From: Leucoraja ocellata
Taxonomy: Eukaryota
Reading direction: 5' to 3'
Assembly (NCBI GenBank): GCA_036785375.1
Contig: JAWMAR010000406.1
Span: 1,116,001-1,180,000 of the forward strand
Length of the DNA stretch: 64,000 nucleotides
The notes below the pieces were generated by a model. The model saw nothing but the letters and a program-made list of their open reading frames with translations. It had not been told where the DNA came from and searched no databases. Position numbers and translations under genes: made by a program. Shown here piece after piece: positions 10,301 through 59,160 of this stretch (position 1 is the stretch's first letter; each line of letters starts with the position of its first letter).

Positions 10301-13300
10301 TATCCAGATGCACATCATAATGCTCAGTTTTCAACTGAACTTGTCAGGGATTATCTTTCTTCCTTATTATAATAGAGAATGCAATCAGTCCACCAAACAG
10401 GTCCAATGCCAATTCCAAGTCCCAATCCAAGTCCAAATATATATTATCACATGCACAAGCACAGTGAGGTACAGGGAACATCTTCAGCATCACAGGCACA
10501 ACACACAAAACATAAACCCAAAGGAATGTTACGTATATTAAGGGGAAAAGGGGAACTTGAGAGGAAAAAGACCCCCCCCCCCATAAACCAAGGTGATTTC
10601 ATCTATGTGTGAAGGTGCAGGAGATAGGCAAAGTCTTCGATGAATACTTCTCCTCTGCTTTGACCACAGTGAAAGACATGACGACTAAATGAAGTTGGGA
10701 ACGTTAATGGGGATGTCTTGAGGATAGTCCGTATTACAGTTGTGGAGGTGCTGGATATTCTAAAACTTATGATGGCAGATAAACCTCCCAGTTTTGATTA
10801 GGGATAACCAAGGACACACCATGAGAAACTAGAGAAGAAATTACAAGAACTCTAGCTGAGATGTATGAATCATCGCAAGAAATGGGTGAGGAGCTGGAAG
10901 AGTGCAGAATGGCTAATGTTGTGCCTCTATTTAAGAAGGGCTGTGATGAAAAACCTGGAGAACTATAGACCAGTAACTTGAACATCCATGATAGGAGAGT
11001 TACTGAAGAAGATTCTGAGGGATAAGATATACATGTAATTCCAAAGAATGAGGTTGATTATGGATAATCAGCATGGGTGGGAGATGTCTAATGAATTTGC
11101 TTGTTGTTTGAAGAAGTAACAAAGGAGGTTGATGAGAGCAGAGCTGGAAACATAGTTTACATTTCATTTCCCAGCAAGGCTTTTAATAAGATTCTCTTTT
11201 TTTTTTAATAAGGCAGGTGGCCTGCGACTAGTGGTGTGCCTCAGAGATCGATACCTCTTTGGGATGTCAAACCAGGGCAGGACCAAAGATGGCTTTGGGA
11301 ATGCTGACCTTTATCAATCAGGGTATTGACCATAGAAGTTGGGACTCTATGTTACAGCTGTACATCGCGTTGATGCAGCTGCATTTGGAATATTGTGATC
11401 AGTTTTTGTCACCTTCCGATAGGAAAGATGTCATGAAGTTTGATTGAGTATAGAGAAGATTTACGGGGATGTTACCAGGACTTGACGGCCAGAGCAAATG
11501 GGACGGGTGAAGTAATCCCAAGACAGGAATACAATCTGTTCCATTTCATCTCTTCTAATTTTTCCTGCAACTTATTTTCTTTCACATACTTATCAACCCT
11601 TAAACTTTCACTTGTCATATGTCTACACTAAAACATAATTTACTGTGGACCATTCATCTTCCAGCATGCTTTTGGGATGTGGGATGAACCCAATGCACCC
11701 AGCCAAAACCTGTGTGGTATTGAAGGAAACTTCACACACAAAATAACCAAAGTCAGGAACAAACCCAGCCCCCCCCAGCTGTGAGGCAACAGCATACCCC
11801 GTCTGCCATTCATGGAACAGGTCCAGGCAGCCAACTAAAGCCATAAGCTGCTTCACATTGTGATTTTTCAATCACTTGCACATTGACGTACCAACACTCA
11901 GAGAATGAGAGATCAATCACCAATTTACAGATGTAAGAAAGAACCTCAGATGCTGGTAAAAATCGAAGGTAGACACAAAATGCTGGAGTAACTCAGCGGG
12001 TGAGGCAGCATCTATGTATGGAGAGAAAGAATCGGTGATGTTTTGAGTCGAGACCCTTCTTCAGAATGATTTACAGATAATTTACAGGAGCTATAAATTT
12101 AAGAGACCCTTCTTCAGACAATTTATAGGAACTGGATCAGTCCCGTGGCTCATTCCTTAAAAGCTAGTATAAATATATTGCCATATATTAACTGCAATAT
12201 TTTCAATTTATCACAAGCATCACCACGTACATTGATAGCCCATGAACAGATAAATTGAAAAGATAATGCAAGCCAAATGGATGATTGCTTCATTGTTTCC
12301 ATTCACGCTCAGTTCTCGACACGGATACAAAAGTTACCAATGGATCTCACACAGCTTTTGGCATCCAGAATTGAGGTATTCCCAAATGCAATAAAATAGA
12401 TTCTAGAAATTGAGAAATAAAGCACCACAGATGCTGGAAGTCTAAACAAAAGTGAAATAAAACTGTGCATAATTAACAGATGAGGTAATACCTAGGGGGA
12501 AAAAATGATTTTAACTTTTCAGGTGATGACTATTCATCATCTGGAAAAGTGTGGAAACAGTACGTTTTAAGTTGCAGAGCATGGGAGTGGGAGGAGTATG
12601 ATTGTGATGGGGTGTAAACCATCCTGCACAGGAGACATGTGTAGGAAGGAACTGTAGATGCAGAAACTGTAGTTTACACCGAAGATAGACTAAAATGCTG
12701 GAGTAACTCAGCGGGTCATGCAGCATCTCTGGGGAGAAGGAATGGGTGACGTTTCAGGTCGACCCCTCCTCAGACCTTCTGAAAAAGGGTCTCAACCCGA
12801 AATGTCACCCATCCCTTCTCGCCAGAGATGCTGCTTGCCCTGCTGAGTTACTCCAGCAATTTGTGTCTTATCTTCTGCACAGGAGACAATTGCTTTGAGC
12901 GGGGGAATTGAATATTTGTTGTCTACGACTAACCTGTCTGGAGGAGTGTGAACAAAGGAAAATGAAGGATAGTGGTGAAAAATACTTGTTGGAGATGTGA
13001 TGCACAACACTACATTTGGTGAAATTAGAATGGACTGGATATAATCTCCCAGTCAGAAACAGAGCAAAAGTCTTCTACAAATCTCTTCATTGTCTGTGTT
13101 TTCAACATCATGTACCCTCTCTCACCAGCCTAACCATAAAACCAATATTGACAATGAACAAACTCAATCAAACAAACTTAGATCATACACCATCCCCTAT
13201 AACAAAGATGCCTAATTTTAGTTTTCATTCAACATTTAAGTTCTATAAACAATTAAAAGATATCTCACCGCACATTTCTATTGAGTCTTATGCACCACAG

Positions 13301-19300: not shown

Positions 19301-22300
19301 ATTCAACATCATAAGGGAATATAAGGACATAACATCAGAGATAAATATGAAAAATCTGCAATAATGAATCAATTAACGCCAAAATCCAGACCGTTGAACC
19401 CAACAACGGGAATCCCTTCTCACCACGGACTGTCCTAATTAAAGGCCATTGTTAGGAATGGGAGTTAAATCCTGGATTTGTCAACAATACCCGTGTCAGA
19501 TAAGTACATAAAAGCGCCAAGTTTAAGTCAGTTTTTACATAATGTAAACAGGCTACAGCGTGACTGTGCAACTGAAATTTCTAAGTGCAGTTATCCAATT
19601 TTTATTTTTTAAATATTCAGCATTATCTTCAACATTTTGAGATCTGGAACACATTGGAAAATTACAATTCTCCAGTCTCCAGCACTTAAATATATAGTGT
19701 GAACATTATATCCTGAATGCTTTTCTGAGGTCAGTTTCAAACACTGCACAAGGGCATCTCCTCATGTGGTTCTGTGTTAAATTGCATTTGGGTATGCCCA
19801 TGTAAAGCACCTTGTTAGATATAAACTATCATAGAAATTCATGTTGTCCTTACAGAATTAGAAATATGCTACGCAGAAGGCTATGGACAGCGACTTCTAT
19901 AACTATTTATAGAAAGCAGTTTAAATCATAAACCCTCAGGCAGTTTTAAGACTGATGACAAGAACGACAGGAAGACTATGAACTGATAAATGGTGCTCAC
20001 TTTAATCAAGGCAAATATGTCATCCATATAGGGTCGAATGTGAATCTTCACAAAGGAAACAAGCATTCCCAGCTGCTGGAACAAAAACTGCAACAAAACA
20101 AAAAAGTATATAAATAGTTTAGACATAAATGTTCTCAACTGAAAAATATAATTACATACATGATTAAGAAATTACATTCTGTCCCATGACTTTTTAATAA
20201 ATAAATTGTACTATTTTTACATGGCAACCACAAATTTCAACAAATCCCCAGATTATTGGTTTTAAATGTGCTAAACTGTAGAGACAAGCAGGAATAAGTC
20301 TAACAGTAGGTAATCCAACAAAGTACAAATGGAAAATGTCAATAAATTCATAAATCGCATTCTCCTCCCTTGCTTCTTGTAAGACCATGATGTAGATTTC
20401 ATCAAGCTCAGGGGATTTGTACACCTTAATGTGCATCAACAACTTACATTTCCACTCTCCCAATACACATGTGTTCCAAACTATCAGCATACACCTTTCC
20501 TATCCTTCACCCTCCTCAACTCCCCTCTTCCCCTCCTCCCTTCCGTGAATACTTGTGTGAAATACTCATTCCGGACAGCACACATTTCCCCTGGCTCCAG
20601 AGCCCTCTGGGCTCCTGAGGAGACCCTCTCTTTTCCTACCTACACTCTTGCTTCGAATATGCATGATAGGTTTTGTAATTCTATTTTATTCTGTTAGGAA
20701 AGGTAATTTCACATACCATTTTTGCCCTCTTGCCTACTTTCTTAAGATCTCCTCTATATCCTTTACAAACCTCAAAGGACTCACTTTATACATTCTTTCC
20801 TATATCCGACATCTGGTTCTTTCTTTTTTCAGAATCCAACCCCCTGATTTCCTTTCTTAAGCAAGTTTCCTAATCTTGTCATCTTTGCTTCTTGCCCTTA
20901 CAGAGATAAGCCGATTCCGAAGAAGCTCGTTCAAGAAACCTACCTCTCGAATATTGGCATCGCACACTCGAATAATGTTCAGGAACGTAGGCATGACTTG
21001 AGGCAGGAACTGGACACACTTCAAGCCCAAAGACTTGAAGATAAACGTGACAGCCTGAACGACCATTGTATGGTGGTTTGAGAGGGAGGTGTCTCGCAAG
21101 ATGCGCATCAGGGTTACCACTGCAACAGCCGGGTAAAACTCATCCAATGGTAAATTCCCCATGTTCACCAGCATTTCACTAGTGCTGTAATCGGCTGCAA
21201 TCAAAATAAACAGTAAAAATGTAAATAGAGAAACTTTTGAATATTAATAATTGCAATGCAACAAGTCAACTGGATCAAAACCTTCTGATTTTATCGTGAA
21301 GTGCCTTCTTGGGGTTTGTCTATGGTTTACAGTAGTACAACACAGAAACGGGCTAAACTCCCTCAACATCATTTCACTTGGTTGGAGAGGTCTACATTTT
21401 ACACTCCCTTCCCCTAAATTGCAGAGCATCCTAACAGAGAATTAAATAAATACTTTGAAACAGTCATGATCAATCATATTTAGAGTTCCTTCGTGAAACA
21501 GCAGGAAATACCAATTACTTAGAAAATACCTCATTGAAAATGCTGGCTTTGCACTCAGTCCATAAATCTTCACACAGCGAGACTTTGAATTCATTCAACA
21601 AAATGCATGCATTGTCTTGACACAATGCGTTAGATGGAGATGTCTTAGTGTTAATAATCCATTCAGCTGTAACCAGTGCCAAATCTCATTACATTTTATT
21701 GCTGAAGGTCACACTTATTTCCTGAAGTACATTTAAATGAAGAAACTAAAAGGTACAATCAATCTCTGCAAAGTAGGATAAGGTCAGTCTGCATTATACC
21801 CAGTTGTGCTGAGCTGCTTATTCCATAAATTATATTCATCATCATGCAATAAAGCTGCAATGTTAGTTTCCTTCTTTTGAACTCTTCCCCAATTAAATGC
21901 TGTCACAATAATTTGTTATTCTACCATTTTGATTAGTCTTCATTCCCCATTAATTATTTGCAACAAGGTGACTGCCCACTTTAAAAGGCATCATGATGTA
22001 TCAATCAATTCTCACAATGTTTATATATTTTAGGCATAAAATGAAAGACATCCTAATGTAGTAGTTCACACTAGTTTGCAGACATATTTGGAAAGGAGGG
22101 AAAAGCATTGACTTGAAAATGTTTAACTCACCACTTACTATAACTGAGACTTGGAGTTTAGAAAGTGTACCAGATTATATTTGTGTTTCACTTAAAAATA
22201 ATGAGCAGAACCTTCAAAGAGAGTATCGCTGAAACTGAGAATGATCTGATCATGACTCCTGCCTATCAAACAAGTCACTCCACTACCATGTAGTAACAAA

Positions 22301-25300
22301 TAAACTCAATCAGATCAGGCATAATGATATCTAAATGCAATTGATATTTGATTAAAATATGGGTTACATTTCTGGAATATGTTGCAATTGTGTTATATGT
22401 ATGAACAGCTAGCTCAGGTCCCTGTGCATGATACTACTTAGTGTTTTAGTGTCCCGCTACACATTTGTGAATTTTTGTGCTGAACAGTGCCCTCTCAGTG
22501 TCAAATAATCTGCAGTTGTTGAAGCTTACACAACGTGGCTGTTTTAGTGAGACACAAGAGATCCATAACGCCTGTAAAACTGCATTTTACAATACGATGC
22601 AAAGGTAGATGAACTCAGGGCACGGATTGATAGATGGGACTGAGATATTATAACCATGACAGGAATATAGATGAGAGAGGGGCACAACTGGCAGCTCAAA
22701 TGTCACTTGCAACATGCTTTAGTTTAATTTATTGTCACGTATGCCGAGGTACAGTGAAAAGCTTTTGTTGCGTGCAGGATGCACATGCAGGATAGAGATA
22801 GAGCGAACAAGGAGTGGAATTGTGTTTGTGATTAGAGGAGAACGGCACAGCAGTACCTCAGGAGATATCCTTAGGTAATCATCCAGTAAGGCTGGATGAT
22901 TCATTAATGGGTGCAACTTGGAAATAAGAAGGGGATGATCAATTGGATGTGATTGTATTATAGGTCCCCCAATAGTCAGCAGGAATGAGAGGAACAAATA
23001 TATAGGGAGTTTGCAGTAGCTGTATAAATAATTAGGTTGTAGTAGTGCGCGATTTCAACTTCACTCATATTGACTGTCTTACAAACATGATCGCATTTTT
23101 TTGAGGAAGAGACAAAGGTGATTGATGAGGGCAGGGCAGTGGATGTTATGTACACAGACTTCAGTAAAGCATCTGGTAAGGTTCGTCATGGTAGGATGAT
23201 CCAGAAGATTAAAATACATGAAATCTAGTGACTGGGTAGTTTGGATTCAGATCTGGTTTGCCCCTAAAAGAGAGAGGGTGGTGTGGAAGGAGGTTATTTT
23301 GGCTAGAGATATGTGACCAGTAGTGTTCCCCAGGGATCAGTGTAATGACCTCTGTTGTTTGTGAACATGTAAATGGATCATTTAATAACTTTGCTGATGG
23401 CACAAACATGGGTGGACTTGCAGACAATAAAGCCGGCTGTCAAAGAGTACAGAACAATCACAGATGTGGGTGGAGAAATGGAAGATAGAGTTTAATCGGG
23501 ACAAGTGTGAGGTGTTGTACTTTGGGAAGTCAAATGCATAGGGAAAATATAAAGTTAATGGCAGGACCCATATACAGAGGGATCTTGGGGTCCAAATGCA
23601 TACTCACAAAAATAGCAATGGATCATGTGCAGGCAGAAGGGATCAGTTTAATTTGGCATGATGTTTAGCACAGATATTGCGGGCCATAGGGCCTGGCCCT
23701 GTCCTGTGCCATGATGTGTTTCGTGTTCTTATTGCCCAGGTGATCATATTATTTTATGTAGCATTTCATACACGAGTGTCATCAGGGTCCAATGGGCCAG
23801 CAGAGGGTGTCGAAGGTCGGACAGGCCCACAGTGAACGAAGAGGGACCTGGCGGACTAAATGGAATACTTAGGGAGGGACCATAGAGGACTAAATGGAAC
23901 ACTTTGTATCTATCGGTGCCCTATACGTGGCGACTCTTTGCACACTTGTGTACCAAAACAAAGAATCGCACTGTGACATGCCACGTGTGATAATAAAGTC
24001 TCATTCATTCATTCATTCCTTGCACATCAAAGATAAGCATGTAAGATAAGATCAGTGTTTCGGTCGGTTCAAAATATTACTTTCGATTTCTTGCCAAAAA
24101 GAAATACAATATCAAAAATAAAGGCTAGAAGCAATTACATTAGTGCTCAAACATTTGTCAAGTTACTGCCAATGCAACTGATCCTTATTGCGAACCACAT
24201 TCATACCTGGGGGTGGAAGATTGCAACTGTCACGTGGTTTCGACGAATGCAATCAACCTGGTGTGCACAATCAAATATGATCAAATAGAACAAGTTGTCC
24301 TACAACTTTAGGCTGTGCACGCCATATGCAAGAAGAAGATTCATACCTGAATCCTGATTTGATTTAGACTCTGATAGACTGACAGCAGAAGCATCTCGGG
24401 ACTGGTCAATCATCCCAATATTAACCTTGTGCTTGTATGGATCCAAGGCACCCAACAGCCCCAAGACACGGATTGCCTACAAAAAATAGCAAGATATTGG
24501 TAAATATTTTGCACCTTTCTTAAAGAAAAAACATTTAATTAGCAGCTTTTGAAATAAACTCATCATACTTCATAGATTTCTTGTATAATTATTTTCTTTA
24601 CATCTACATTAGTGCAACCATTTGCAATAGGTTTTAAATTTCCCTTTGCATAAAGATAGAGTAATATTTGCAAATTAATTTCAAGGTGTGCTTACCACTC
24701 TACAATCTGTCTGCAGGGTGTTTACGCAAAGATACCTCCATTTTGCTTGTGTTGTCAGCACAAAATAACACAAGAAATAGGAGCATGCGTTGGCCCACCA
24801 GGCTCGTCACGTCTGCCCCATCATTCACTATGATCAAGGTTGATCTATGCCAGCCTCATCTCCTGTGTCAGCTCTCCATAACCCTGAATTCCACAGTCAA
24901 GGGTAAAGACTTCCTGAGATCCACTACATGCCTCAGTTTTAAATGTCCAGCTCCTTATCTTGTAGCTATGTCCTCTTGCTACTGACTCTCCCACTGGTGG
25001 AAACATCTAAACATCTACCCCATCAAGCCCCTTAGAATCTTACATGTGTGAATATGGAAGTATTTTTTCCCAGAATAGGATGATTTCCATTGCTTTACCT
25101 GCAGTAACACATGCACCGACTAATATGCCCTTTTCATGTCTTGGTAAGTGTCACCCTTACCCTTTCTGACAGACAAAATGGGAGACCTTGCTGTGGGCCT
25201 TGAAACATTTTTGGTTCAGAATTTACTCCCAATGTCCTATATATGTTGCAAGGGTAGAGCTACCACAAAAAGTTCCTCTAAATCATAAAGTAAACTGGAA

Positions 25301-37700: not shown

Positions 37701-40700
37701 AGGGTGCACAAGAGGGAGAAGCCATCCATTGCTGAGACGGAATTCTACAGTAGGAAGTAATTGCAATTTTTTTTCTTTCCGTTTCCCACCGAATTACCAG
37801 CTAAACTGACTGGCTGGAGATTGTACCCAGGGATCCTTAGGGTCCATGCACAGCAGAGATTAAAGGGCTGACGAGTCTGCTTGTGATGGGGAAGATGGGT
37901 GTATCCATTTCCATTGTGGGAGAAGAGAGGCCACGAATAATACATTGCTTCCTTTTGAGAGACCGAGGGGACAGATCAAGCTGGGTTCGGCATTCCAGAG
38001 ATGAGGAAAAACTCGCAGCCAAAGGTCTAGGCACAGATAAAAATGCATGAAGAGTTTAGCATCATATTGGCTTGAATTTCATTAAGAGGGGGTTTATGGG
38101 AATGAAGCAAGGCTTCTGCTGAGAGTTAGTCATACAGTGTGGAAACAACCCCTTCGACCCAACTTGCCCATGCCGACCAACATACCAATCTGTATTAGTC
38201 CCACATCCCTCTAAATCTATTCTATACATGCACCGGTCTAAATGCTGCTACAATAGTACCTGCCTCAACAACCTTCACCAGCAGCTCGTTCCTCAGTCAT
38301 TCAGGATTATAGAGGGAAATGAGAAGGGATTATGACAAAGTGGCGAGGGATCAAACCAAGGGTGGAAAGTAGCCAGAGGATAGTAAAATGATAGTAAATA
38401 AAGGTATAATAAATTAAGAGCTGTTGATGTTTGCAATCTTTTATTCCATTTCCATTTCTTCCCCTTTAATGCTGACAATGAACATCCACCACAGAACGCA
38501 AATTGGGCAGCTGCTTTACAGCACACATTTACTCAGTCAAGGCAAGGGTGCCTCGAGTTCTCACTGTGATTTCACCATTCCAGTGCCAGACTGCTAGTCG
38601 TTCCTTTCAGTTTCAGATTGGTACTTGCCCTTTTCTATTACTACAAAATATATTGATGCCATGATCACCATTATGTTTTTTCACCTACACTTTGTTAACT
38701 TTAAGATATTTGGATAGGTACATGGATACGTTTCGAGAGTAATGAGCCAAACGCAAGCAGGTGAGACTGGTGTAGATCGGGCATCTTGGTTCGCGTGGGC
38801 AAGTTGAGCCGAAGGGTCCGTTTCCACGCTGTGTGACTACCTCACTCCCCAGAATCAGTTCCAGAATCAGTTTGTCTCTTTTCTCATTGGGACAGAAACA
38901 CTGAGGTACAACATCTTACTTTTTTCCAACTAGACTAATCAACCACAACTGCAATGCTTAGTATTATCGCAATATCTACAAAGGGACAACTTTCGCATTC
39001 AGAGTTGCCTTGGTGTGAATGATTAAAATCACAAGTATAATTCAAATACTTCCCAAGGTTCCTACCTGATGAATTAACAAACTGTCTACCCATTTAGAGC
39101 CTGACTCCCCAACCTTGTGTCATGTCATCTGGATGGAAAATAATACTGTTATTAATCCCTCACAAGGATGAATAAATAATTCCTACAATATTGAAAATTC
39201 ATCTTGAAATTGCCTACTAATAATGTACAAACTGTTCCTTCGTACTAATGCTAATAATTAGTTTTGACATGTTCTTTGTACTTGGCAGACTTCTAGTAAG
39301 ACTGATCATTTCTGCTTTTCTCCCAGCACACCAAATTCCACGTCCCAAAATTCCCACGAGGATATCACTGAGCAGAATCAGGACTGGGTTGCTTTCACTG
39401 GATTTTTCTCAAAACAAACACAAAAGCCACTCACACACTCCACCTACTGGCAGAACAGATAAGTTCATGAGAAGACAATAAAATAAGCAGTAAATAATGC
39501 GTATCTTTGCTAAATGTAGTTCCCTCATCCCACAAACATGGCAAATGCATACACAAAGGAAGGTTAATACGAGACGTCGTAGGCAAGATAAAATACAAAC
39601 AAAATGTGCTTTTATGTCATCGGAGGTAGACAAAAAATGCTGGAGAAACTCAGCGGGTGAGGCAGCATCAATGGAGAGAAGGAATTGGCGACTCTTCGAA
39701 AGGTCTCGACCCGAAACGTAGCCAATTCCTTCTCTCCATAGATGCTGCCTCACCCGCTGAATTTCTCCAGCTTTTTTTGTCTACCTTTGATTTTTCCAGC
39801 ATCTGCAGTTCTTTCTTAAACATTTTATGTCATCTATTTTTTTTTTGCAGGACAGAGCAAGGATATCAATGTTGACTGTAAATGCGCTATTTTTTGGGTT
39901 TGCTTGTTTAGGATAATCCATACATACTAGTAAATAATAATATTTTTTAAACTCTACCTGTATCAACATTTTGCGAAGAAAAGGCATCACAAATGCAGGA
40001 TTCATACTGCTCAATCTGCCAATGGTGCAGATGGCAAGCTCACGGATTTCAAACACTTCATCATTCAGTGCCACAAAAAGAGCTTGCAGATTCTCAGCCT
40101 GGGCTAAATGGGCATCAAAACGTTCATCCAAAGACGCCAGCACACAATAGCGAATATCAGGATCTGAATAAACAGGACAAGCAAAATTCTTCATAAATTA
40201 AAAAACATCAGAATTTAGAACCACCAGTTTGCATTCTACTATTTGCTATTTATGTATTACAAAACAGAATCAATTTACTTTTTAATAACAGAATATCCCA
40301 ATAGGCAGAATAATGGAAGATAGGTTTCTACAGTTAAATTATTATTACTTAATGACATTATTACTTAACGACTTGTTGAACTTTGAGAAAACATCCTCAT
40401 GCAGTTTTACTTTATTTTACAATAGATAAAGAAGTTATAAAAGTAGGTAAACACCGATAAATCTGCAACCCTATTTTAGTTTGAACTGTGACAAAAAACT
40501 TTGCAGTGGGTTCAAAGGTGTCTACAGATAAGCTTAGGTAGTAGGTTTTATCAAACAGAGTGAACTGGGATTCCAAGAAGATTAGTGCAGACATTTTAAA
40601 GATACAATTCTAAAATGAGCATAGATGTAGTTTTTAGTTAACGCCTATTTAATACAAATGCTTATTTTACCAATTATGCTTTATTAGTTTACCCAAAGCA

Positions 40701-52700: not shown

Positions 52701-55700
52701 AATAATATTTGTAGCTACAATCATAAATAGATATCCTATCAGCATATTTAGAAATATTCAGACATATTAGCTTCAAAATACATTTTCTGTGATTATCCAT
52801 TCAAAAGAAAATAACCGTGCATTCATACATAATATAAAATTCCTCGTTTTTCAATCCATTCTAAGCTTTTTGACAGTACCTCAAGATTAAAATAGGTACA
52901 CAAACTAAAATAAAGCAGATAATCTGCTATCCAACAATTAAGAAAGGCTGGTACACAAAAAAGCTGGAGAAACTCAGCGGGTGCAGCAGCATCTATGGAG
53001 CGAAGGAAATAGGCAACGTTTCGGGCCGAAACCCTTCTTCAGACTTAATTAAGAAAGGCTGATGGCTCAGCAACTGGTTCACCATGCAATCATTGTTCCC
53101 TTTCAACTCACTGGGGCCTCTGTTCCCCAGCGCCCCTTCAATTTACCAGGGCCTATGTTTCCCTGCTCCCTTTAAACTCACAAGGGCCCCATTTCTAATG
53201 TTTCCTTTAAACTGTCAAGGGCCCCATGTCAGCTAATCGGGTTTAAGATAATAGAGTTCACTGCAAAATGTATTATATTACCGCATAAGATCTAAAAAAA
53301 ATGTGCATTAAATGTGTGTTCAGGTATTAGAAGGATTAACGTCCACTGGTCCCCAAAATCTGTCGGGTTGGTGCCACCAAAGTGTGCCAGATTATCAGAA
53401 TTCTATGGTGCTTTCCAAGGAAACAAAAAGACAATGCTACAAATTGCTCATTTCCCTGTAGTTATTAACTTTAAAAATTATTCTTCACAACGCACTAATT
53501 AGAGCGAATACCATCCCACCACAGGATACCCTGGAGTGTGTTAAAATGTGACACGACAAACTCTCGCATAGATTTTAAACACAGACAGAAATTTTACAAC
53601 ATAGTTTTTATTTTCACTTGTACCAAACCAACATACCAATTGCCAGGATACCTCCCTTCCTCTCATTCACATCGGAACTGGAAACCAGTTCAAAAATGTG
53701 ATGGTTCAATTCATCATAGAATGAGGTGACTTCCTCTTGGTTAACCTAAATAGGCACATATTAGAAGTTAAAACATTGTAAACCTGTGCATGTCATTTTG
53801 ATTAGCATTAAAACGTTTCTTAAATCCTCGCATATAATTCATCACAAGATACCAGTTGATGCAAAGAATTTAAGGCCGACCAGCTGGCACTATACGTTTA
53901 GTTATTATCTCACTGTTTAATTGTTTACCCAGGAATGAGATAGGATCGTGGGAGATTAAAAAATACAAGATAGCAGATTGGTCACTGGCAAACACTGGGA
54001 GGACTGAGGAGCCCCGAAATATTTTATAGCCATCGTTTCTCAAAAAGGGATCCAATACAAGTCCATGTGAAAGAATTTTCATTCACTCTAAACATGTGTT
54101 TTCTAAGAAAAAGAAACTTGGACTGGACACTGCCTGACTTTGCTGGCAGCTCTGCATGGAAATGATGGCAATTCTCAGCATAAATACAGGGAAGCTTCAG
54201 GACAACTGCATGCATGGCAAATATACAGGTGTCCCCAGTGATTTCAAAGCTGCAAGCAGTTCTTGTATTCCCAAGAGAATCCAACGGCAGATAAGATTTG
54301 TGTAGGAAGGAACTGCGGATTCTGGTTTACACTGAAGATAGACACAAGAAGTCGGGGTAACTCAGCAGGTCAGGCAGCAACTCTGGAGAAAAGGAATAGG
54401 TTTATGTTTCGGGTCGAGAAAGGTCTGTCGAAGGGCCTTGACCGAAATAACACATGTTCCTTTTCTCCGGAGATGCTGCCTGACCTCCGAGTTAGTCCAG
54501 CTTTTTGTGTCTATCTTCGGCAGATAAGAGAAGCTGAGATACTCAACAATAAGGTGGGGAATGGGCTCTTGTGACCTTAAGCAGGATCCATACGCCCATT
54601 CACTACAACTAACATTAGGCTCCAAATAAAGTAGGCGATAGACACATAACCTCAATTATTTATGATTTTAATTATTTAAAAGGCTTATATTTTGTCAATT
54701 TTTACTTTTTCAGCAAAAAAGACTAGAACAAAGCGAAAAAAATTGAATAATTTAATACACTTCCGTCAGGTCACCCCGAGGTGCATAACATTTTGAGAGG
54801 CACAGTCCTTTCCTCAGGGCGGAAATGTCAAGTACTGGAGGGCATGGGTGGAAATGACAATTACTGAAGGACATAGGTTTAAGGCGAGAGGGGGCAGTTT
54901 AAAGGATATTTATAAGGCAAGTGTTTCTTTTCCGCAGAGAGTGGTAGGCACCTGGAATGTGCTGCCAGGGAAGGTGGTAGAAACCGATATGATAGAAATA
55001 TTTAAAAGGCATTTCGACAGACACGTGGAAATAGAGGCATGTGGACTACGTGCAGACAGATGGGGTGGATTAGATTGGTGCCACGGTCGGAACAGACATA
55101 AAGTGCCCGCCTGTATTGTTCTATGTTCTAAGTTGACAATCATTTATTTTATTCATATTAATTTTACAGTGCTTCTGGACGTCACAAACATTGCCCCAGG
55201 GAGAATTGAGAAACAGAGGAAACTTTGCATACAAGTCCAAGGATCCTCGAAGGAGGCTTCACAAGTATATTGGATGATGAAAAAAAGTATGTGGGATAAC
55301 TCACCTACATTAGCCAGGATAGAGAATGAGAGCAGAGAAGTTATGGTCAAACTTTATAAAACATTAGCAAAGCCACATTTGGAATACTAAGTGCCGTTCT
55401 GGACCCATAAGAATGATTACACTCGAGAGGATGCAAAGTGGATTCACCAGGATGTTGTCTGGGATAGAGTGACTCAGTTAAGAGGAGAGACTATGCAATT
55501 TAATGACCTTGACAGCTTTAAAAGTTGGCAAAGCTGGGGTAGAGCTTTACCGGTTGTCAAATATACAGTGAGGTGTCAAGGGCATCAGAGAACCTTGGTC
55601 AAGGTCAGGCCACTGATTTGGGCCTTGACACCTTATTACAGGACTTTTGTGGCCATTTTGATCTTCCAGAACTGGAGTAATTGACCCCGGGAAATGGGGA

Positions 55701-58942: not shown

Positions 58943-59160
58943 AGAAGATACACACAAAATGCCGGAGTAACTCAGCGGGACAAGCAGCATCTCTTTATAG
59001 AAGAAATGGGTGATGTTTCTGAGAGTCTCAGTCTGAAGAAGGATCTCGACCTGAAACGTCACCCATTCCATCTATCCAGAGATGGTGCTTGCCCCGCTGA
59101 GTTCTTCCAGCATTTCATTTTCAATCTTCAATGCAAACCAGCAACTGAAGAACCTCCTGC
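58943..59160. mobile_element. Fold-back Penelope-like element with hammerhead-like core at 59033-59060 (+)
   Basis: CTGAAGAAGGATCTCGACCTGAAACGTC inside inverted arms. Confidence 0.7.

Follow-up and report, generated by a model that had tools for sequence, protein, structure and literature searches.

An antisense LINE-derived retroposon duplicated the exon 18 splice donor of mtor, with the exon-side copy as the probable main donor

A short non-autonomous derivative of a LINE has inserted antisense at the splice donor of mtor exon 18 and duplicated that donor, and we consider it likely that the copy adjoining the exon (D1) carries nearly all of the splicing, the copy downstream of the insert (D2) being a silent or slightly leaky decoy. 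The insertion is old, of a known kind and probably tolerated. What makes the case notable is that the textbook rule of donor choice predicts the opposite outcome to the reading that we favour. If D1 dominates, the locus would be a natural test of donor choice, with identical 11-nt donors lying 140 nt apart in an essential gene, for which the rule drawn from reporters predicts use of the lethal site; context would have to overrule position, and one of the related organisms (organism C) would represent a natural D2 mutant, which would make the system useful but ordinary. Regulated use of D2 would mean that, in one lineage, mTOR owes an NMD-based dosage dial to a retroposon. If the insert were removed recursively, we would be observing the birth of a recursive splice site whose origin, one retrotransposition event, is known and can be dated, and the head of the element would turn the family into a latent intron generator wherever it lies antisense in an AG/GT motif (the slash marking the splice boundary).

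The window, by which we mean the whole stretch of 64 kb that was analysed, contains exactly two copies of the 11-mer ATTCATACCTG (Table 1). Read on the minus strand, which is that of mtor, the 11-mer is CAG/GTATGAAT and covers donor positions -3 to +8. The sequence-only reading had taken it for a target site duplication (TSD) holding the full donor and had proposed that exon 18 could end at either of two identical donors 140 nt apart, that the one farther from the exon is the copy joined to the original intron, and that its use leads to a premature stop. All of these claims, including the coordinates of the two exon ends, were confirmed. The site that it called distal is our D2, and corresponds to the intron-proximal site in the terminology of the splicing literature. 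Reading on past D1 gives 15 codons and then TAG, and the 140-nt addition that results from D2 use also breaks the reading frame. From its sequence, the D2 product would be expected to undergo NMD, and any protein made from it to be truncated near residue 941 of ~2,549.

Examination of the flanking exons identified D1 as the collinear donor, since these exons match residues 884-926 and 928-1010 of solved mTOR and leave one split codon between them. A sturgeon protein has the same junction residues as the join of D1 to position 21194, while a protein search restricted to lengths of 147-2000 aa (77 hits among 166 candidates) named no mTOR from a cartilaginous fish. The mtor gene model, which is homologue-based, has 25 introns and counts the exon ending at D1 as the 17th of the coding exons located in the window; it is presumably exon 18, on our assumption that exon 1 is non-coding as in human mtor.

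Table 1. Features of the mtor exon 18 to exon 19 region, in window coordinates
Feature	Position	Strand	Basis
mtor exon 18, 17th coding exon, 130 nt, phase 1 end	24347..24476	-	solved mTOR 884-926; Pfam mTOR_dom; gene model
TSD copy 1, exon-side donor D1, exon end 24347	24339..24349	-	sequence; collinear join to exon 19
CUU-repeat pyrimidine tract, D1 +9 to +17, antisense element tail; candidate TIA/PTB-type enhancer of D1	24330..24338	-	sequence
Premature TAG if D2 were used	24300..24302	-	93 nt upstream of D2 junction
129-bp non-autonomous bipartite LINE derivative, antisense to mtor; HDV-like ribozyme-shaped head without 9 nt of P1 3' strand; (AAG)n tail	24210..24338	+	family copies; both ends match LINE L092; Rfam and pairing
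Candidate recursive splice site: acceptor-like sequence up to and including the D2 CAG, with a C-rich tract and a branch-like A at -24	24207..24230	-	PWM 7.4 bits
TSD copy 2, downstream donor D2, would-be exon end 24207; GT to GC in organism C	24199..24209	-	sequence; relatives' contigs
mtor exon 19, 251 nt	20944..21194	-	solved mTOR 928-1010; gene model

The insert belongs to a 129/138-bp family whose dispersed, ORF-less copies all begin at one fixed position, carry an (AAG)n tail and are flanked by TSDs of mostly 8-13 bp. Because family copies carry their duplications in the same geometry, the repeated 11-mer at mtor is a true TSD, and the retroposon insertion proposed from the sequence alone is upheld. 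The head of the family has at least 10,099 exact matches in the genome (G000), a copy count that is inflated because many loci are present there twice (L002/L003, L007/L008, L019/L020 and others, their flanks being 95-99.97% identical, either haplotigs or segmental duplicates), the mtor locus being single. Nucleotides 1-77 of the family correspond at 88% identity to positions 4691-4615 of L092, the start of a TSD-flanked LINE copy, and nucleotides 103-139 (37 nt) correspond at 97% to positions 506-470, the 3' end and tail of the same LINE. Since the first 77 and the last 37 nucleotides match the LINE ends, the short element is an internally deleted, ORF-less derivative of that LINE. The family head is present at 26 of 30 unselected 3' ends, and two of the 30 (L073 and L076, a duplicated pair) represent the end of the LINE. 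An origin as a tRNA-derived SINE was considered and rejected: there was no tRNA call and no Rfam match of that kind, and the head is the LINE's own 5' end.

The partner LINE is about 4.2 kb long in copy L092, where reverse transcriptase (RVT_1) was found in two of the seven frames of this broken copy, and has a C-terminal Cys/His knuckle, C-x-C-x10-H-x4-C, a motif that we take to be linked to the Ingi/Vingi clade. The seven fragments scanned of the decayed L092 gave no match to an endonuclease or RNase H family. In the part available of the paper describing them, Vingi LINEs have a single ORF with APE and RT and without RNase H (PMC13708176). We treat the Ingi/Vingi-like nature of the partner as a lead. 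The copy itself (L092:470-4691, on the minus strand of G000:C1) is decayed and flanked by a short duplication, L093 is near-identical to it, and some 1.1-1.2 kb near the 3' end of L092 resembles unrelated inserted DNA. Family copies also occur at ~2 kb spacing on one strand in G000:C1:19.26-19.43 Mb and in L023, probably within a larger tandem repeat.

Analysis of the head of the long variant yielded only two Rfam matches, both to HDV families and both below the gathering threshold (21.7 vs 50 bits and 14.4 vs 44 bits; E = 0.3 and 1.8). The criterion for the HDV arrangement was a nested double pseudoknot formed by P1-P3 that has a G.U at +1 and, ahead of P2, a C. The corresponding pairing holds in 96.8% of 315 cells of the long-variant head, compared with 21-44% when it is slid, without excess over shuffles, and a search for covariation in it found no two-sided change. 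The head of the long variant may thus be modelled as an HDV-like fold, and a fold of this kind, heading at least 10,099 copies (for example, L068:1386-1439) at their 5' ends, would explain the fixed start. In the mtor copy, for which Rfam gave no HDV match, a 9-nt deletion (window 24236-24237) takes out the P3 and P1 3' strand, leaving the P1 helix not intact. This deleted variant is rare, with 21 exact matches (the window and 20 other places). Because 9 nt of the fold are gone and the orientation is antisense to mtor, the mtor copy cannot cut the pre-mRNA. The deleted variant keeps the same start base, and may be a small subfamily or the product of a recurrent deletion between short repeats.

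The insertion extends beyond the sequenced animal. In four other organisms (B, C, D and E, at 0.7-4.3% from the window; 4 of 4 runs) contigs anchored in unique flanking sequence reach into the element at its left and at its right end, and among the joints listed for these organisms no empty site, that is no joint skipping the 140 nt, was found. Bridging by 31 letters was reached at the left junction in B and C only; the contigs at the other six junctions extend 24-29 letters into the element, which is about the reach of a contig before it breaks in a repeat. The sequence-only reading had left presence in related species to be checked, and it now stands to the extent that four other organisms have contigs leading into the element from each flank. 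Six of 126 sites distinguish the mtor copy from the family majority, about the median of 30 unselected copies, and we therefore regard the insertion as old. In G000 the locus was matched once, with no second haplotype or empty allele. At window 24229 the mtor copy departs from the family majority, and this base gives rise both to the branch-like TGAC that precedes D2 by 24 nt and to an AG, at 24227, that is new. Judging from where the contigs end, at 24259 for B and C and at 24235-24238 for D and E, the base may be common to B and C and perhaps absent from D and E.

Comparison of the donors among these organisms revealed an A to G change at 24205 in organism C, which turns the GT of D2 (position +2) into GC and is present at the full depth of the locus contig, so that D2 is dispensable in that organism. 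Organism B is identical across D2, and D and E retain the +2 base. The neutral chance of one GT change is 8-17%, and a single change of this kind therefore does not tell drift from selection. Changes at D1 in the relatives may be hidden, as repeat depth swamps the D1 positions, and the differences given here are among those listed. The sequence-only reading had offered two alternatives, an NMD-coupled isoform that could lower mTOR dosage or strong selection for the exon-side site. With the GT of D2 lost in organism C and the insertion common to four relatives, the comparative data favour the latter, that is exon-side use.

According to the mechanism that we propose, the element would have inserted through target-primed reverse transcription. 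D1 would then be favoured through the native exon retained behind it and through the CUU tract of the element gained directly downstream, while the use of D2 would demand that a pyrimidine-rich antisense element of 140 nt be recognised as exon, and any D2 transcript would be degraded by NMD. Precedents for such an effect of context are found in the available parts of three papers: TIA binding 10-28 nt behind an upstream donor promotes that donor (PMC2964331), PTBP1 sitting on the pyrimidine tracts that separate two donors switches on the upstream donor (PMC4222953), and where silencers lie between sites in competition it is the downstream site that they repress (PMC2095810). At positions +10 to +28 pyrimidines make up 13 of 19 nucleotides behind D1 and 8 of 19 behind D2, the other 24 mtor donors having 5-15, so that the content at D1 is high, yet inside the range of the other mtor donors. 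Because mTOR is essential and the insertion is common to related organisms, an allele that sends most of its mRNA to a kinase-less product is unlikely to persist. Since the allele does persist in five organisms though position favours D2, something must overrule the position of the donors, and context offers the simplest account.

Several results count against the dominance of D1. The donor shared by D1 and D2 matches the consensus at 9 of 11 positions and, with 8.3 bits and rank 11 among the 25 mtor donors, is fairly strong. The predicted folding leaves D2 the more accessible site, with a mean unpaired value of 0.46-0.60 compared with 0.36-0.38 at D1. Reporters carrying two identical strong donors at least 45 nt apart used the downstream one in ~100% of cases, in the portion available of PMC3413131. 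The intact +2 position of D2 in B, D and E speaks against its being a decoy. A stable structure hiding D2 was also considered as an explanation and was rejected (z = -1.05, D2 being the more open site).

These same results nourish the view that D2 acts as a poison donor, being used substantially and possibly in a tissue-dependent way (for example, in tissues poor in PTBP1 or TIA), so that 140 nt and a stop are added and NMD lowers the dosage of mTOR. The identity of the 11-nt donors, the predicted openness of D2 and the unchanged +2 base in three of the four relatives are all in its favour, and the premature stop, 93 nt before the D2 junction and with many exons downstream, exceeds the distance rule of NMD, under which a stop lies more than 50-55 nt before a junction. 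It is also in line with the downstream-site rule (PMC3413131) and with Hps1, a working precedent of the same layout (PMC4222953), as far as the available parts of these papers go. Organism C (one of four relatives, and hence of low power) has lost the GT that a conserved dosage switch would be expected to retain, constraint on D2 was not detected, and persistence in five organisms caps the flux that can be lost. Taking these points together, we consider substantial use of D2 unlikely. Far less credible is that the insertion is an assembly artefact or a private allele of the sequenced animal, to which we give almost no weight: the locus is single in G000, without a second haplotype for comparison, but contigs of four other organisms reach the element from both sides and contradict it, and the TSD and the ends are typical of the family.

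A further possibility, which we hold to be rather improbable, is that the stretch between D1 and the AG of D2 (140 nt) leaves as a mini-intron, the ancestral donor being rebuilt exactly before the rest of intron 18 is removed, with a normal mRNA as the outcome. The sequence-only reading overlooked that D2 doubles as an acceptor-like AG/GT, and it put no name to the element. The AG/GT geometry is exact through the construction of the TSD. The AG of D2 scores 7.4 bits compared with 8.0 for the true exon 19 acceptor, inside the range of mtor acceptors for a PWM built from only 24 sites, and it is one of just 2 among 147 intron 18 AG sites to score as high. A branch-like TGAC with its A at -24 (24230) precedes it, and YAG/GT, a pyrimidine tract and a branch-like A, as the sequence criteria for recursive sites have it, are present at D2, the tract being C-rich and U-poor. 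Transposons entering AGGT can splice out cleanly (PMC3443670) and recursive sites are known over a range of intron sizes (PMC10156609), in the sections available of these papers. Nevertheless, organism C would rebuild a GC donor, so that recursion is not obligatory there, and the C-rich tract holds 5 U, the lowest number among mtor acceptors (5-13). Moreover, in the available portions of two papers rebuilt donors are subject to repression by the EJC (PMC6224609), and short introns show recursion that is for the most part stochastic and of minor extent (PMC10156609). It is doubtful that the insertion supplied its own escape, with the antisense head providing the branch point and the pyrimidine tract, TSD copy 2 the AG/GT, and the mini-intron restoring the mtor donor. 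Within the antisense element, at window 24258, there is a second CAG/GT (6.0 bits as acceptor, 5.4 as donor) that together with D2 bounds a 51-nt mini-exon opening with a stop.

Whether the element seeks splice sites was addressed through the family as a whole. The motif AG/GT lies within 3 nt of the head, in antisense, in 68 family copies against a rough expectation of ~76, and splice-site targeting by the family was therefore rejected, there being no AG/GT preference. Assuming 150,000-250,000 introns, roughly 1-2 of 10,099 copies are expected to hit a donor by chance. The 11-bp match is beyond chance locally, and an insertion into a donor is unsurprising genome-wide. In the 67 other AG/GT copies, many of which are duplicate pairs, the TSD covers the motif in 42 and GT is present in both TSD copies in 30. 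As for intron gain by the family, none of 71 flanking open frames (at least 25 aa) matched Pfam, compared with one of one for mtor, a comparison that short and non-Pfam exons would escape.

The closest described case is the canine merle SINE, which is the acceptor mirror of the mtor insertion. According to the available part of PMC7349775, it is likewise a short retroposon in reverse orientation at an exon boundary (PMEL intron 10/exon 11), its 15-bp TSD also holds a splice site, and the splicing outcome hangs on the sequence of the element. The merle insertion, however, concerns an acceptor, is recent and polymorphic, and has an effect that was measured and tied to tail length, whereas that in mtor concerns a donor and is common to related species. 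The gain of introns from AGGT transposons shares with our case an AG/GT on both sides of the insert, such that the GT of copy 1 and the AG of copy 2 could excise it exactly; in the accessible text of PMC3443670 the target is coding sequence, while in mtor a donor already existed and the result would be a recursive site rather than a new intron. Exon 18 of Hps1, as presented in the part available of PMC4222953, resembles mtor in having a productive upstream donor, an NMD-bound downstream donor and pyrimidine tracts in between, the use of the mtor sites being a prediction. In Hps1 regulation by PTBP1 was demonstrated and the upstream site is the weaker one, whereas in mtor the sites are identical and the spacer is a retroposon.

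With regard to the element, bipartite ORF-less LINEs (RIME of Ingi, NARTc of L1Tc, the Vingi-1_EE derivatives and Bov-A) likewise consist of LINE 5' and 3' ends only, the microsatellite tail and a head shaped like an HDV ribozyme, a candidate fold in our family, being further points in common; the mtor copy differs from them in missing 9 nt of the P1 helix. Internally deleted derivatives of this kind are reported only for RTE, Ingi, Vingi and R2, both statements following the passages available of PMC5786205. The available part of a paper on NF1 insertions (PMC3219598) yielded no case of donor duplication, and that of the elephant shark SINE paper (PMC5499810) holds nothing on this family. Within the main texts of the open-access literature, supplements aside, we found neither papers naming this family in cartilaginous fishes nor papers on a duplication of the mtor donor.

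Other features of mtor in the window deserve mention. The best-scoring gene model assigns a GC donor (window 49660, minus strand) to the intron that follows the 4th coding exon, and MITE-like palindromic repeats of 160-200 bp, which are interrelated, lie in the introns of mtor and upstream of the gene (window 39624-39786, 12681-12875, 54334-54518 and 58957-59115).
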